This document shows, in pieces, positions 7,818 to 63,434 of a stretch of DNA of 64,000 nucleotides; position 1 is the stretch's first letter, and every line of letters starts with the position of its first letter. The position numbers were made by a program, and so were the translations under genes. The notes under the pieces were generated by a model that worked only from the letters and a program-made list of their open reading frames with translations, was not told the DNA's origin and did not search any database. Origin of the DNA: Heptranchias perlo (taxonomy: Eukaryota); contig NC_090362.1 of NCBI RefSeq assembly GCF_035084215.1, positions 12,214,001 to 12,278,000 of the forward strand, in the 5' to 3' direction.

Positions 7818-7856
7818 TTCACCTGAGGAAGGAGGAAGCCTCCGAAAGCTTGTGAT
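7818..7856 (+). ncRNA. Minimal type I hammerhead ribozyme in Penelope terminal repeat
   Basis: TCAC-CTGAGGA-A-GGAGG(AAG)CCTCC-GAAA-GCTT-GTGA: catalytic boxes, 5-bp stem II, palindromic stem III, stem I TCAC/GTGA. Confidence 0.8.
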
Positions 7857-8334
7857 TTTCAAATAAAATCGTTGGACTATAACCTGGTGTTGTAAAATTG
7901 TTTACAATTGTCAACCCCAGTCCATCACCGGCATCTCCACATCACGATCTCAGTTAGGGCAGCGAAAGGGCATCACGATTGCCCTGAACCCTCTGGAGTT
8001 AGGGAGGTAGTCACACCACCAGAGGTCCTGTTCTTGATCGCTATACAGAGACATCTGCTGAGAATGTTAGCATGTGGCTGTGGGGCGAGAACAGGATTAG
8101 GCTTGGCAGTGACGATCTTCTTGGTACAATAGCCTGTGGACCCTCATTGTCATGGCTTACACAGGGTGAGATACTGGGGGACCACTGACAGAACTGTACC
8201 CAATGAGAATCAGGAGAGGAGGGGAGAAAATCAGTGAGAAAGGAAAAAGTTAATTCATTAGACCCAATAAGCATGTATGCTTTCCATTGTTTACTCTACT
8301 TCTTACCATATCCTTCAACCCCCACCCTCTCCAA

Positions 8335-11414: not shown

Positions 11415-11780
11415 ACTAATGTAATCCCAATGCAGCCTTTCCTAAAAAGAAGGCCTTAAATGAACTGTTTAAATGAAAGCTTGTACATGGTATCACATTT
11501 CTCAAGCTCTCCACAACATCACTCCACCCCCTGCATCCTCACTGTGCTGAAATCAAGATCGATCTCCTACTATAACTCATTCTTTCTCAGTACCTTAAAT
11601 CACTGAATCTCCTTGCTTCCCTTAGTCTTCTTCTTACAATGTACTGTTTTAAGCAACTTTTCTCTTGTCCTGCTCTTAAGATCCAAATCCCCCATCCTAC
11701 ACACTCTTCCTCCTCCCTGTATCCTCACCGTTTTCAAATCGAGACTCATCGTCCAGTCTCCTACTCTCAACACCATGGGA

Positions 11781-27450: not shown

Positions 27451-27880
27451 CATGATGTGGAGATGCCGGTGATGGACTGGGGTTGACAAATGTAAGGAAT
27501 CTTACAACACCAGGTTATAGTCCAACAGTTTTATTTGAAAATCACAAGCTTTCAGAGGCTTTCTCTTTCGTCAGGTGAAGTGTGGGATTCCTTGAACGTT
27601 ACCGCATTTACAGTCAGAGAACAATGCCTGGTGATTACAGATAATCTTTCCAACTGCCCGTTGTCAAGGCAATCAAAGTGTTCAGACAGAGAGACATTAC
27701 CTACAGGACCACCGAATATACAAACGGCCAGAACAAAAGACAGACAGAGAGAGAGAGAAACATCCGAATGGAAGAGAAAGAGATAACTTTTGTTCGCTGG
27801 TGGGGTAACGTGTAGCGTGACATGAACCCAAGATCCCGGTTGAGGCCGTCCTCATGGGTGCGGAACTTGGCTATCAATTT
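27451..27880 (-). mobile_element. Penelope-like 3' fragment (terminal repeat plus ORF end)
   Basis: KLIAKFRTHEDGLNRDLGFMSRY and the same terminus as at 7860-7945. Confidence 0.9.
27541..27580 (-). ncRNA. Minimal hammerhead ribozyme (variant)
   Basis: Reverse complement TCAC-CTGACGA-A-AGAG(AAAGC)CTCT-GAAA-GCTT-GTGA. Confidence 0.65.
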
Positions 27881-33994: not shown

Positions 33995-35632
33995 ACATTA
34001 CATGTGTTGGTGAAACTGAATTTTTCCTGTGTTGGTGATACTGTACATTTTCTGTGTTGATACTGAATTTCCTGTGTTGGTGATTTTGTGCGTTTCCAAT
34101 GTTGATACTAAATATCCTGTGTTGGTGATTCTGTACATTACCTGTGTTGACGATACAATACATTTCCTGTGCTGATACTGTACATTTCCTGTGTTGGTGA
34201 TACTGTACATTTCCTGTGTTGGTGATACCATACATGTCCTGTGTTGATACTGTATGTTTCCTGTGTTGATACTGCAAATTCCCTGCATTGATGATACTTT
34301 ACCTTTCCCATGTTGATACCATACACTTCCTGTGTTGATACTGTATGTTTCCTGTGTTAATACTGTACATTTCCTGTGTTGGTGATATGATATATTTCCT
34401 GTGTTGATACTGTACATTTCTTGTATTGGTGATACCGTACATTTCCTGTGTTGATACTGCAAATTCCCTGCATTGATGATACATTACCTTTCCCATGTTG
34501 ATACCGTGCATTTCCTGTGTTGATATCGTGCATTTCCTGTGTTGATACCATACATTTTCTGTGTTGGTGATACTGTACATTTCCTGTGTTGATGATATTG
34601 TACATTTCCTGTGTTGACACTGTACATTTCCTGCATTGATTCCATACATTTCCTGTGTTGATGCTGCACATTTCCTGTGGTGGTAATACAATACATTTCC
34701 TGCATTGATGATATTGTACATTTCCTGTGCTAGTGATACTGTACATTTCCTGTGCTGAGGAAATTGTACATTTCCTGTATTGATGATACTGTACATTCCT
34801 GTTCTGATGATACTGTACATTCCCAGTGCTGAGGATACTGTACATTTTCAGTGTTGTTACTATACATTTCCTGTGCTGAGGATACTGTATATTTCCTGTG
34901 CTGATACTGTACATTTCCTGTGCTGAGGATATTGTACATTTCCTGTGCTGAGAATACTGTACATTTCCTGTGTTGGTTATTACTGTATATTTCCTGTACT
35001 AGTGATATTGTACATTCCTGTGCTAATGATACTGTACATTTCCTGTGCTGAGGACACTGTACATTTCCTGTGCTGATACTGTACATTTCCTGTGTTGGTT
35101 ACACTGTATATTTTCTGTGCTATTGATATCGTACATTCCTCTGCTAATGATACTATACATTTCCTGTGTTGAGGATACTGTACATTTCCTGTGTTGAGGA
35201 TACTGTACATTTCCTGTGTTGAGGATACTGTACATTTCCTGTGTTGATGATACTGTACATTTCCTGTGTTGATGATACTGTACATTTCCTGTGTTGATGA
35301 TACTGTACATTTCCTGTGTTGATGATACTGTACATTTCCTGTGTTGATGATGATATACATTTCCTGTGTTGAGGATACTGTACATTTTCTGTGTTGATGA
35401 TACTGTACATTTTCTGTGCTGATGATGATATACATTTCCCGTGTTGATGATACTGTACATTTCCTGTGTTGATGATACTGTACATTTCCTGTGTTGATGA
35501 TACTGTACATTTCCTGTGTTGATGATACTGTACATTTTCTGTGCTGATGATGATCCTGTACATTTCCTGTGCTGATGATGCTATACATTTCCTGTGCTGA
35601 GGATACTCTACATTTCCTGTGCTGAGGATATC
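33995..35632. repeat. 22-25-bp minisatellite, ~1.6 kb
   Basis: GATGATACTGTACATTTCCTGTGTT variants. Confidence 0.97.
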
Positions 35633-36744
35633 TCTATGCACAGTGAATTCATGTACAACCTGCTTTTGCAATGGAGGAAATAGAAGGAAAGAGAGGGAGA
35701 ACAAAATTCATCAAAATCAGAAAGGGGAAAAGTGAGAGAAAAATTAAAAGAAAACAGAGAGAAAAGGAAGGGAGAGAGAGAAAAGGAAGGGAGAGAGATA
35801 CAAAGAGTAGGGGGGTAGAATAATAGGTCAGTTCTTAATTCTGCCCCGCTCAGCAAATCTTGCACAGCTGTGCTGTCCTGGGACCAACAGCATCATTATG
35901 ATTAAGCCTGTTCTCACTATAGCTGAACAGCAAAACTCTATACGAGGATTTGTTTCCTGAACCCCAACACTCCATGTCTCTCAGCCCATGCCACTCCCTA
36001 CCTTGTGTTGGTGCAATAAATCAGCAGGAATTGGCAAAATTTGCATCGTAAACACGTTTTTTGCACTAAACCATTAATATGAAATTGTTTGAAGAGGAAA
36101 TGTACATTTGAATGATTAATAGCTTGACGGGGAATGTTTGAGACTTTCTTGCCTACAGAGCTTGCCTTGGCTGTTCCACAATCTAATGATGGAATTGCTG
36201 CCTCTCGAACACCAAAAAAAAAATCCCCTGGATATATAAATGTCTGAATTATGTCACAGATTGATCTGTAATCTGATATATTAATGTTCAACAGCTTGCC
36301 CTGCCTCATATTAATGATGAAATGATGGATCGAAACTGGCAATGTTATTTCATGCAGCTCCATTAATTCATCTTAATTTTGAATTAATCTGCATATAGCA
36401 ACAGCACACCAGTGATGGAATAGCCTTCAGTGAGAGAGATTTTCATTTTACAGGTTTTATGTTTGCTGAGTAATGGAGCCATCCGTCAGCCTGACATACA
36501 ATGATGTAAATTAGGTCAATGTGTTTTCTAAAATGGGGGAGGGGAAGGGGGGGGGGTTAAGATTTAGTTTTTCAATTGTGATGGAGATTTCCACTTGAAC
36601 ACTTTCTAACATTTGTCAATTTGAGGGTCCCTGCTTCAGAACCAACCGGTAAGGTGAGAGATACAGCGGTGGGAGTCCAATCATTGAGAAAAGGAGAATA
36701 GAAATCCCTGGCCACAGACGAACAACATGTAAAAATCAAACCTG

Positions 36745-45144: not shown

Positions 45145-45499
45145 ATTTAAATTCCTTCATGGCCTTGCCCGCCCCTATCTCTGTAACCTCCTACAATCCT
45201 TCCCTGAACGCTCCATTCCTCTGACCTGCCATTTGTGCACCCCTTCACCCCACCAATGGCGGCCGTGCCTCCAGTTGCCTAGGTCCTAAGATCTGGAATA
45301 CCCTCACTAAATCCCTCCGCCTGTCAACTTTTAAGACCCTCCCTAAACCCCACCTCTTTGGCTAAGCTTTTGGTCACCTGTCCTAATGGCTCCTTCTTTG
45401 AATTCGTGTCCCACTTTTGTCTGGTTACAGCTCTGTGAAACACCTGAGGATGTTTTTTCTACGTTAAAGATGCTGTAGAAATGCAAGTTGTTGTTGTTG
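45145..45499 (+). mobile_element. L2 LINE 3' end
   Basis: FKFLHGLARPYLCNLL; GCAAGTTGTTGTTG tail. Confidence 0.85.
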
Positions 45500-46450
45500 A
45501 TGGGCTGAATGGCCTGTTTCTGTGCTGGAACATTCGATGATTCTATGACTGGATTCTCTTCAATTCTACTTGATTCAGTTCCACACATTACGTCTCCCTT
45601 GTAACATTCAAGAACAGCCCAGACTGATGCACACCCACTTTAAGAAGGCATGTTTCTGTTTGTAAGGTCTGCTGACTGATCCCAAATGAACTGTTGTGCT
45701 GCAATTTGCATTTGGTCTCATTTACTGTATCATTCTAAACGTCAGGCTTGATAAGTTACTGTGAAGAGATACTTCATAGTGGCAGCTCTCTGGGGTAATA
45801 ATCGGTGTCATTACATCAGACACAATGAGCATTCTTCATCCAGTTTCTGTCAACTCTTGACGGAGAGCATCTGACCACTGTTTTATGCAGCAGGATAAAT
45901 GCTTCCCTTGGCTATTTGAGATGAATCTCATTTTTGCTTTCATCTTTACCAGTTCTTCAAATCTCCGACACTTTTATTTCGCTCAATGCTACTCTTCGTT
46001 ATTGTTTTCTGTTAAGATCGGATGGTGGGGTGGAAGGGGGGTGGGGAAGAAGTACATTTTTTTGTAGCCCTTGAGATAGGGTGGAATTTCAACCTGCAGG
46101 GTTTTCTTTAATTGACAAATCCAGGTGAAGGGACTCAGACTGCAGGAGGAATTTACAAGGAAGGGAAGACTGAGTGAGGTGTTGAGTTCTACAGCTTTGT
46201 GATCCTGGAATACAATGACTTAGAGTAGGATCTGGAACGATGAGTCTTAATTTCAACACAATGAGGATGCTGGAAGGGGCAAAGAGTTGCAAAGATAATT
46301 ATTTAGAGTTTGGGATGAACAGGAAAGAAAAGTTCAGAACAGCAGTGGCTATAATAATGTCATGATGTGGAGATGCCGGTGATGGACTGGGGTTGACAAT
46401 TGTAAACAATTTGACAACACCAAGTTATAGTCCAGCAATTTTATTTTAAA

Positions 46451-46489
46451 TTCACAAGCTTTCGGAGGCTTCCTCCTTCCTCAGGTGAA
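46451..46489 (-). ncRNA. Minimal hammerhead ribozyme
   Basis: Reverse complement TTCAC-CTGAGGA-A-GGAGG(AAG)CCTCC-GAAA-GCTT-GTGAA. Confidence 0.8.
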
Positions 46490-46518
46490 CGATGTGGAAA
46501 TGTGGGATTTCCACATCG

Positions 46519-46557
46519 TTCACCTGAGGAAGGAGGTAGCCTCCGAAAGCTTGTGAA
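46519..46557 (+). ncRNA. Minimal hammerhead ribozyme
   Basis: TTCAC-CTGAGGA-A-GGAGG(TAG)CCTCC-GAAA-GCTT-GTGAA. Confidence 0.8.
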
Positions 46558-47314
46558 TTTAAAATAAAATTGCTGGACTATAACTTGGTGTTGTAAAATT
46601 GTTTATAATAATGTCAAGAAAGGTTGCAATGAGAGGATGCCAGAATTATTTTCGTAAAAGAGAGGTAGGAGGTTAGAAGTGAGAGAGGGATCACCTGGTC
46701 AGACAACAAGCCCTTGTAAGTTGTCCTGGGGTGTGAGAGAAGTGCTAGAAGATCCTCCCATGTATGGCAGCAATATTCAACTCTGAGACAGACTTGGGCC
46801 TTATAGACAGATACGAGTTGATGAGCAGAAAAGACATTGCAAAGGACCTATTTTGTGATTCCAGCCAAGCAAAGACAGGAAACATTAGCTGCAGTGAAAA
46901 GCTAGTCAAAAGAACAAAAATAACCGATTGCAATTTTCTGGGGCCAACTCATCTGAATAATTAGTGTGAACTCCCAGCACTGCTTTGGCTTGTGGTGGGA
47001 GTTGGCATAATTAGGGAAAAGCTGGCTAGAATCTCAAATTTAAAGGGACATGCCCACTTAAAGTAGTGTGGCCTCTTATGGGGACACAGAATGTTTCAGC
47101 CTTCATAAAATAGAGTCTATGGACAAGTAATGGAATAGTACAGCACCAAACCCCTTGTTAGATGGCTGGTGAAGTGGATATAAAGCTGGATGAAATGGGT
47201 GTGAGGAAGAGTAAACTGTTTACCATTCCAGGGCAACCTTTCTCAAAGATCATCAGTGCCCCATGCCTGTCAGTAGATGGTGGCCAGTCTCAACATCCTA
47301 TACAACACCTTGGA

Positions 47315-48080
47315 ATAGAATCAAAGAATCACAGAAAGGTTACAGCACGGAAGGAGGCCATTCAGTCCATCAAGTCCATGCCGGCTCTATGCAAGAGCAA
47401 TCCAGCTAGTCCCACTCCCCTGCCCTATCCCCGTAGCCCTACAAATTTTTTCCTTTCAAGTACTTATCCAATTCCCTTTTGAAAGTCATGATTCAATCTG
47501 CCATTGTGTCATTGCAAATTTGGAAATTGTGCCCTCTACATCGAAGTCCAAGTCATTAATATATATCAACAAAAGCAGTGGTCCCGGTACCGACCCTCGG
47601 GAACACCACTGTACACCTCCCTCCAATCCAAAAAACAACCGTTCACCACTACTTTTTGCTTCCTGTTACTTAGTCAATTTTGTATCTATGCTGCTACTGC
47701 CCCTTTTATTCTATGGGCTTCAATCTTGATGACAAGCCTATTGTGCGGCACTTTATCAAATGCCTTTTGAAAGTCCATAAACACCACATCAACCGCATTG
47801 CCCTCATCGACCCTCTCTGTTACCTCATCAAAAAACTCTATCAAGTTAGTTAACACGATTTGTCTTTAACAAATCCATGCTGGCTTTCCCTAATCAATCC
47901 ACACTTGTCCAAGTGACGTCTAATTCAGTCCCGGATTATTGTTTCTAAAAGTTTCCCCACCACCGAGGTTAAACTGACCGGCCTGTAGTTGCTGGGTTTA
48001 TCCTTGTACCCTTTTTTGAACAAGGGTATAACACTTGCAATTCTCCAGTCCTCTGGCACCATCCCCGAATCTAAGGAAGT
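47315..48080 (-). mobile_element. CR1 with internal deletions (RT start joined to 3' tail)
   Basis: SLDSGMVPEDWRIASVIPLFKKG..PSNYRPVSLTSVVGKLLETII; DFQKAFDKVPH; CR1 tail at 47315-47500. Confidence 0.92.
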
Positions 48081-62063: not shown

Positions 62064-62157
62064 ACATGGGGGAACAGTTGTAAGGAGTCTTACAACACCA
62101 GGTTATAGTCCAACAGCTTTATTTAAAATCACAAGCTTTCGGATGCTTCCTCCTTCG
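62064..62157 (-). mobile_element. Very short Penelope 3' tip
   Basis: TTACAACACCAGGTTATAGTCC..CACAAGCTTTCGG; 17-bp TSD GACACAGGRGAACAGTG (62047-62063, 62158-62174). Confidence 0.85.
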
Positions 62158-63434
62158 GACACAGGAGAACAGTGGATAGTTAGCTTATGTAAATATGCAG
62201 CAAAGAATTTCATCAATACAGAGCGATGGGTTGGGAATATCCTCTCACTGTTAATTGAAACAATGCTCGGTAAAATGAGTATGGCCATCAGACTTAACTC
62301 AGATGACACTAACACAAAACTGCCTACTGTTCAGCAGTAATTGAACTAAGTTTGTAGTCTCACTAATGCACATAGTGAGAAAGGGAAATGTTAATTTGCT
62401 GCACTGGGCAGTTCTCCTCTGCAGTTACGGTTAAGGTACATTGTCAGGGGAGTGCAGAAAGAGCTCTGACACGTGCTGTATCTGGCATGGGGGTGCCGGT
62501 GCTAACATTGAATGCAAAAAGGAGAAAGTGTTTCATTCCTCAGCAGGGAGCACAAAAAACTTAAAACAGTGGACTACATCCATTCCAATTCACTCCCACT
62601 GTATAGATCGCAATGGGCCAAACCATTTCCAATTCAATTCCTATTGTACAGAAAGGCAATAGACCAGACCCCTTCCTATTTACTCTCATTGTGCAAAATT
62701 TGAAATGACCTATCCCTACCCATATGGACCTATTCAATTCTCAACCCTGGTTTAAGCAGTGTTTCCTGGGTTTATTCACTTTATTGAAGGTCAGCTGTTG
62801 AATTTTGTTGCTGAATTCATTCACCGTTATAGCTGCCAAAAGGAACTACAGCACCATTCAATACTTTTTTTTCCATCAGTCCAAAATTAATTTTGGGTGG
62901 AGTGCCCATCAGTACAATCACTCAAACAATTCTTCACAACTGAAGACTATCAATGTTCATTGGTACTAAATCATTCTACTCCTCAGTCACATTTAAACAG
63001 CGCAGATGTCAGTCACTGTAAATAAAGTGATTTTATTAGCACTATTACTACACATGCTACATCTATCCTGGTCTTTGCAACAAGTGCTTTGAGTTTCAGA
63101 TAAGCTAATAAATTGCAGTGAAGATGTCCCGTGGAGAGAGAGGAGGAACAGAGAAGGAATAATACCAAGAATTAATGAGTGGAAGTCCCTGAATCAGCAA
63201 ATGTTATAAGAACATATTTAAAACATTTCATTCTTGAAACTGGATAAAGAATGGTTTCTATAAACAGAACCCATGATGCAGCACTGCTGTCACAGCTACT
63301 GCACTTGAGTGATGACGCCCAGCATTTTTGCTCTCCTTTGTGTATCCTTTATTTAGCATTATTTTACCACAATGTATATTGTCGTATTATTAATTTGATT
63401 AAAACGTTTGAACAGTGTCTTCGTTGACTACAAT

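Follow-up and report, generated by a model that had tools for sequence, protein, structure and literature searches.

The palindromic insertion described here lies in a 64,000-nt stretch of the genome of Heptranchias perlo (contig NC_090362.1, positions 12,214,001 to 12,278,000; hereafter the window), and is a known type of Penelope-like element (PLE) insertion, the inverted pLTR copy, in an extreme short form. We consider it probable that such short copies, here called stubs, arise when a dimer of the protein of an EN+ Penelope nicks and primes both strands of the target, both cDNAs run off the 5′ end of the RNA, and the two are joined head-to-head. The observations behind this reading are that the arms are the leader of a 901-902 aa ORF encoding a reverse transcriptase (RT) and a GIY-YIG endonuclease, that they start 30 nt from a TATA box and finish at two end points ~36 nt apart, that the target site duplications (TSDs) are ~12 nt long, and that the targets are two-fold symmetric. 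As a single locus the window copy is ordinary, and its value lies in the mechanistic signatures of the population to which it belongs. More than 1,000 young, separately formed stubs in one genome are a natural record of what is likely to be Penelope integration, and they place quantitative constraints on the length of the stagger, the symmetric target, the 5′ end of the RNA, the coupling of arm lengths and the mixing of arms.

Anatomy of the window insertion

The insertion consists of 241 bp between two copies of the 13-nt direct repeat TATAATAATGTCA, at 46350-46362 and 46604-46616. Its arms (46399-46501 and 46507-46609) are 103 nt long and 97% complementary, and they enclose the loop GTGGG at 46502-46506, in keeping with the initial annotation, which described a TSD-bounded insertion of ~240 bp with ~100-bp arms, few mismatches and a 5-nt loop. 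The TSD itself is probably 12 nt with 1 nt of microhomology, the thirteenth base matching the T of the ATG of the ORF; we read it as 12 nt because this is the modal length among relatives (67/137), and in the 12-nt register the site, which was outside the training set, scores 8.7 on the symmetric target matrix presented below. The three mismatches between the arms are at 46471/46537 (loop II of the hammerhead motif, AAG vs TAG), 46413/46595 and 46402/46606, the last of which falls within the direct repeat. The annotation had further read the arms as two inverted Penelope 3′ ends. Their Penelope origin and inverted arrangement stand, but the arms are better called the 5′ leader, or pLTR, end of the element, and an asymmetry was overlooked, as a tail of ~36 nt (46363-46398) is present on the left arm alone, giving a left arm of 139 nt with the tail and a right arm of 97 nt without it. 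The features are as follows:

46350..46362, + strand: left TSD; the repeat is 13 nt, of which 46350-46361 are probably the TSD proper (12 nt) and the last base is common with the ATG of the element
46363..46398, - strand: Penelope tail, the ~36 nt that separate the element's two end points; its last base is the A of the ORF start codon; left arm only
46363..46501, - strand: long arm, 139 nt; the predicted 5′ leader in full, running from ATTTCC at the predicted start site (TATA+30) up to the ATG
46450..46490, - strand: hammerhead motif of the minimal type I with AAG in loop II; cleavage predicted between 46456 and 46455
46502..46506, no strand: junction GTGGG, found in the window copy only; GTGG repeats nearby arm sequence and is presumably a templated insert
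46507..46603, + strand: short arm, 97 nt, without tail; predicted start site to inner end point
46518..46558, + strand: hammerhead motif of the minimal type I with TAG in loop II; cleavage predicted between 46552 and 46553
46604..46616, + strand: right TSD; the element matches its first two bases as well (microhomology)

No long ORF was found near the palindrome. Pieces of short repeats forming an 84% inverted pair 1.8 kb apart (45497-45534 and 47336-47373) bracket the element and probably come from two unrelated short repeats. Elsewhere in the window, four further Penelope copies of related subfamilies are located at 7818-7947, 27451-27800, 59967-61786 and 62074-62170, the third of which includes a minus-strand RT-EN frame of 500 aa, while long low-complexity tandem repeats at 11600-12600, 34000-35700 and 50300-50800 give rise to spurious open frames.

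The parent element and its leader

Longer copies of the arms lead into an ORF of 901-902 aa, whose ATG comes directly after the tail. Profiles matched by this ORF are RVT_1 (E 3e-10, 40.5 bits) and GIY-YIG (E 3e-4), the latter at 21.3 bits and thus just short of its cut-off of 22.6. The parent accordingly has the organization of an EN+ Penelope-like element, a single ORF in which an RT is followed by a C-terminal GIY-YIG endonuclease. Two further hallmarks of these elements are also present: the tandem pLTR, seen at locus L114, where three tandem units 3,083 bp apart have a pLTR immediately upstream of the ATG, and the form of the insertion, an inverted 5′-truncated copy with a 30-40 nt tail at one end and a TSD. 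A structure search found no solved structure for any relative.

At locus L112, a TATAAAT box is positioned 29 nt upstream of the A in the initiator-like TCATTTCC, and the ATG follows 138 nt downstream of that A. We take these motifs to be the TATA box and the Inr by their resemblance to the consensus sequences. Both window arms start at the A of TCATTTCC, so that each is a copy of the predicted 5′ leader. At the other end, arms finish at one of two element end points ~36 nt apart, with modal last bases at +130/131 and +168 from the T of the TATA box, and there is one tailed arm per insertion (37/39 loci and 42/43 loci).

Several larger arrangements of the element were also encountered. Full-length units stand head-to-tail, ~3,081-3,083 bp apart, at L114:1681-10000 and at L088/L089, and the L114 units, with intact 902-aa ORFs, are likely source elements. 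Much longer palindromes, 5.6 kb at L064:645-6266 and 3.8 kb at L065:570-4401, share the end points and TSD size of the stubs, and L064 retains an intact 901-aa ORF on one arm. A sister subfamily is represented at L115:885-4700 (G000:C2:21.27 Mb) by ten tandem 404-bp units with a hammerhead, where the unit comprises a pLTR with TATA box, a tail and a 51-codon frame and is a candidate retrozyme-like or mini-PLE source.

The population of stubs

The exact window junction occurs once in the 3.25-Gb assembly, and two other junctions differ from it by one base. Strict patterns for junctions of the same type retrieved 377 in the window's subfamily and 641 in sister subfamilies, or at least 1,018, where both counts are lower bounds that include some duplicated loci. 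Among 582 candidates, a palindrome of the same size was present in all 40 loci scored. The centres of the palindromes are diverse: they varied among 30 loci chosen by BLAST for likeness to the query, and 28 distinct centres were counted in 36 oriented loci (the 39 fetched minus three without a scored tail) and 38 in a set of 43 loci. Thirteen of the 36 oriented centres are perfect palindromes with zero loop, seven of them overlapping by the terminal AT. The junction lists also contain many centres with lengthened A/T runs, often near-symmetric, or with re-copied pieces of the leader start. At L126-L128 (G000:C1:4.00-4.01 Mb), a single palindrome has been amplified passively in a tandem repeat, with an identical centre and near-identical flanks.

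These counts bear on the two origins that the annotation had offered, a one-off integration product or a non-autonomous, retrozyme-like family. The former does not survive the 377 and 641 junctions of like type with their diverse centres. The latter, in which the palindromes would be copied as whole units in the manner of a retrozyme- or MITE-like family, would account for the similar size in at least 40 loci, for the recurrence of some simple centres (7/36 identical; 5/30) and for the GTGG-type inserts that recur in 6/30 of the BLAST-selected loci. However, the palindromes do not share one common internal junction; the exact junction is unique, an outcome that the annotation itself had named as telling against a family, and 28/36 and 38/43 centres are distinct, with complex centres common only to copies that have identical flanks (L126-L128). 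In addition, a stub contains neither the TATA box nor the ORF-start region, and there is a continuum to palindromes of 5.6 kb with the same TSD and target matrix. Copying as whole units is thus largely refuted and very improbable. Since each stub has its own centre, it was likely built anew at insertion, and since it lacks the TATA box and the ORF start, it is likely a promoterless dead end with masked ribozymes.

Target sites

TSD lengths among 137 short palindromes are 12 nt in 67, 13 nt in 44 and 14 nt in 9, and all 15 long palindromes have TSDs of 12-14 nt. The sites with 12-nt TSDs have a two-fold symmetric bias, with C at -7, TG at -4/-3, pyrimidines at -2/-1, a central TTAA and the mirrored pattern on the right side, so that the consensus is roughly TGYY-[12 nt with central TTAA]-RRCA. 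The symmetry (r=0.81, n=64) was equalled in none of 5,000 shuffles, centres shifted from the true one gave -0.13 to 0.25, and r stays at 0.81 after homologous targets are collapsed (64 of 67). Held-out sites scored 5.1 (47 short) and 4.8 (15 long) on the target matrix, compared to -5.7 for off-centre windows, although the held-out values are slightly inflated by taking the best offset. A two-fold symmetric target is the expected trace of a symmetric double cut. Independent insertions at homologous sites inside host repeats (L010, L013, L242; L033, L270) identify target hot spots. A literature search confined to open papers turned up neither start-site mini-palindromes nor a symmetric PLE target consensus, with the supplementary figures of PMC11167929 on cut and start sites possibly bearing on this, and the accessible part of PMC12910113 holds nothing on targets.

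Arm ends and the predicted start site

An unselected census was based on a 30-mer with 5,165 exact matches, of which the first 100 (contig C1, 0-36 Mb) were read and 99 recovered. The index arm ends at TATA+28 to +35 in 54 of these, at +1 to +27 in 2 and beyond the TATA box in 43 (Fisher P 1e-9). Inverted pairs could be scored in 44 cases, 29 short-short and 15 long-long; these counts leave out L075 (two rows, nested insertion), L063, L146 and L148 (partner scored past +51, all three of which look short-short) and one spurious L068 pairing with an older neighbour. The 56 short index arms have a short inverted partner in 43 cases, none in 13 and a long one in 0, and the 13 unpartnered (solo) arms end at +30 to +35. 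At junction-selected loci of the window's subfamily, 68/78 arms end at +30 to +32. In a sister subfamily, where the hammerhead core is 6 nt nearer the TATA box, 27/32 arms still end at +28 to +34, but the loci were chosen by a junction pattern that restricts the possible end positions, and hence the edge appears sharper than in an unselected sister-subfamily sample, in which 8/16 truncated index arms end at +2 to +26.

From the motif spacing and the arm ends, we predict that the transcript starts at TATA+30. The cut site of the ribozyme was considered as an alternative RNA 5′ end and rejected, as it lies within 2 nt of the end in only ~2/27 of the arms whose partner is a start-site arm, with one more in the census. 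The rarity of ribozyme-cut ends fits an uncleaved RNA as template, as was found in vitro (PMC11167929). Genome-wide 30-mer counts of 4,954 at the TATA box and 5,165 downstream, the former not clearly lower, give no support for the start site, because the two patterns take different variant sets and their comparison is uninformative. Contigs of uncertain kind from four runs of one sample, presumed to be RNA, contain the repeat but are unsuited to showing starts, strand or editing; they leave the unique flanks of the window locus uncovered, which is neutral as evidence. Against a start at TATA+30 stands the Penelope of D. virilis, which is described in the accessible part of one source as having an internal promoter without a TATA box (PMC2377424).

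Integration could also be double-primed with the common 5′ edge reflecting a hot spot for RT stopping, template jumping or joining instead of a transcript start. The edge falls within ATTTC repeats and T-runs that favour joining, with AT/TTT microhomology and 5-nt repeats, and the blunter edge in the sister subfamily agrees with this explanation. Yet the edge tracks the distance to the TATA box and not that to the hammerhead, the 13 partnerless arms end at the same place, and an RT blocked by the ribozyme stems should presumably halt 3′ of them and not beyond; a hot spot is therefore quite unlikely to be the cause of the edge.

One template or two

The arms of short palindromes are discordant at loop II in 5/29 and 3/38 loci (8/67), where ~18 would be expected under random pairing and ~0.3 from background mismatch at 0.3-0.4% per site (P 6e-10 vs background). 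The excess over background supports two RT events. The window copy, with AAG vs TAG, is itself discordant, and linked double or triple differences between arms occur at L019, L139, L221 and L073. Long pairs are discordant at loop II in 0/15 cases, and 0/43 loci of sister subfamilies are mixed at five sites. Given this low discordance, a single template would suffice for most copies. There is also a coupling of arm lengths, none of the 56 short index arms being paired with a long arm, which argues against two independently chosen RNAs. Within the 15 long pairs, the tailless arm extends further in 13, the tailed arm in 1 and neither in 1 (P 0.002), and the tailless arm was therefore not copied from the tailed one; no such trend is seen in short palindromes (8 vs 9 when differences of at least 3 nt were counted by hand). 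One pattern match was examined as a hybrid between subfamilies and set aside, since it is better read as a short arm inserted within an older copy, with 12 nt duplicated.

Because it explains both the coupling and the low discordance, the main rival to double priming is fold-back, or self-priming, in which one cDNA, begun at the inner site, terminates, folds onto itself and is copied back toward its start, while a short second cDNA gives the tail only. A form of this mechanism, with self-priming on an antisense template, has been proposed for rotifer PLE palindromes in the portion of that work available (PMC3846280). Fold-back would also be consistent with the longer tailless arm in 13/14 unequal long pairs and with arms that are mostly identical at variant sites. 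It meets several difficulties, however. Zero-loop centres (13/36) are impossible as intramolecular hairpins without extra bases, the minis have no regularly longer arm type, the linked haplotype differences require a second template that reaches at least the ribozyme, and an antisense template leaves the ends at the sense TATA+30 unexplained. We consequently judge fold-back to be unlikely.

Hammerhead motifs and their predicted masking

Both arms contain the ordered motifs CTGAGGA-A-GGAGG-loop-CCTCC-GAAA-GCTT-GTGAAT, and loop II is the sole difference within them, bearing out the annotation on the complete hammerhead core in each arm and on AAG vs UAG as the only change. The features of minimal type I (PLE) hammerheads are all present: the conserved core, the extra base before G10.1, the G10.1-C11.1 pair and the palindromic stem III. 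A self-cleavage site is predicted after CUU in each motif. A search of Rfam, which the annotation had suggested as a check, produced no hammerhead family match at the gathering score over the window, nor at E<=10 within 46300-46660, the matches there being to generic hairpin models alone. Minimal PLE hammerhead motifs were previously found by descriptor searches, according to the accessible text (PMC4209133). Across 12 hand-picked variants, 93.9% of cells in stems I and II are paired, a level reached by 2/500 shuffles, and 5/11 pairs are altered on both sides, suggesting that both stems are kept by compensatory change; as the variants are related sequences, this is supportive only.

Modelling agrees with the earlier proposal that the hairpin could mask the ribozyme, as stems I and II have a predicted pairing of 0.91-0.99 when an arm is folded alone, and this falls to 0.0 for the + strand motif once the complete palindrome is folded. 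The leaders meet head-to-head, so that the antisense arm would be transcribed first and masking would be expected on either strand. The hammerhead motifs in stubs thus may well be passengers. A role for the window copy as a selected host regulatory RNA, either a masked ribozyme switch or a source of small RNAs, would draw on the near-perfect ~100-bp hairpin formed if it is transcribed, but the copy is young, resembles hundreds of others and has no long ORF nearby, and we give such a role hardly any credence. If some stubs lie in transcribed regions, the population would be a large source of near-perfect ~100-bp hairpins.

Proposed integration mechanism

In the double-primed mechanism that we favor, a protein dimer would nick both strands of the target at a 12-nt stagger, whereupon one target 3′ end would prime at the tail end of the RNA and the other at the inner site. 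Both cDNAs would usually be copied from a single pLTR on one uncleaved RNA, the inner RT running ahead, and a second co-expressed RNA would sometimes serve. On the first pLTR of the transcript, both cDNAs would reach the RNA 5′ end, at ~100 and ~140 nt, and their 3′ ends could anneal via 0-4 nt of microhomology or via templated inserts. Each cDNA would then be extended on the other to produce the palindrome, making separate second-strand priming unneeded. We infer a start site for the RNA, a protein dimer, the geometry of the nicks, displacement of a strand by the RT that follows and an enzyme that joins the cDNAs. Inserts at the centre, such as the GTGG of the window copy, re-copy nearby arm sequence. 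Polymerase theta or realignment of the RT could make such inserts.

These elements can be combined, tentatively, into symmetric double target-primed reverse transcription. Here, a dimer would sit on a two-fold symmetric site of ~28 bp and cut with a 12-nt stagger, two RTs would run in tandem on one leader with the inner RT ahead, and the cDNAs would prime each other's second strand; the bases re-copied at many centres would reflect realignment of a telomerase-like kind where the template ends, and a self-silencing hairpin stub would be the most frequent outcome. The combination as a whole is possible but somewhat doubtful.

Comparison with known systems

As described in the accessible parts of the literature, the inverted insertions of EN+ PLEs (PMC3846280; PMC8557442; PMC2377424) resemble the stubs in being head-to-head inverted 5′-truncated copies with a 30-40 nt tail at one end, a short TSD and tandem source elements, and the TATA and Inr-like motifs in the pLTR are common to known EN+ PLEs (PMC3846280) and the parent of the stubs. 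Stubs differ in that both arms halt at the predicted start site, leaving two leaders only, a short form that makes up 29/44 scored inverted pairs. Neither a symmetric target consensus nor arm-allele discordance appears in the accessible parts of these three papers, and the origin of PLE inverted structures and tails is called undefined in one of them (PMC8557442).

A close parallel to the proposed mechanism is PAc, a Poseidon protein of Anolis, for which the available text reports in vitro that both strands are cut and extended, that two internal RT start sites delimit the tail and that the template is uncleaved RNA, and a dimer is predicted (PMC11167929). For PAc, RT starts 111-118 nt inside the ORF and the cut motif is ATT; the outer start site of the stubs is located at the ATG, and their target follows the symmetric consensus given above. 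That text gives no account of inverted products (PMC11167929).

With metazoan PLE hammerheads, as far as the accessible text describes them, the window motifs share the minimal type I core, the extra base before stem II, the G10.1-C11.1 pair and the palindromic stem III (PMC4209133). The window variant is a predicted hammerhead with a CUU triplet. Dual motifs 100-700 bp apart on opposite strands were already known, and no activity as monomer and low activity as dimer have been reported, but the same text draws no tie between these pairs and run-off at a start site (PMC4209133). Non-LTR retrozymes, in the accessible part of their description, are likewise PLE-derived, non-coding and equipped with type I hammerheads, but are tandem direct repeats with at least two hammerheads, whereas stubs have two in inverted orientation and each insertion is formed separately (bioRxiv 10.64898/2026.07.22.740005). 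The window copy accordingly lacks the tandem repeats with two or more same-sense hammerheads of a retrozyme, its motifs being inverted with one per strand.

L1 inversions copy two different parts of an RNA, while the arms of stubs copy one part from two fixed starts. L1 twin priming (bioRxiv 10.1101/2024.12.14.628481) otherwise corresponds to the proposed mechanism, in that both target ends prime cDNA and the resulting inverted fragments lie between TSDs.
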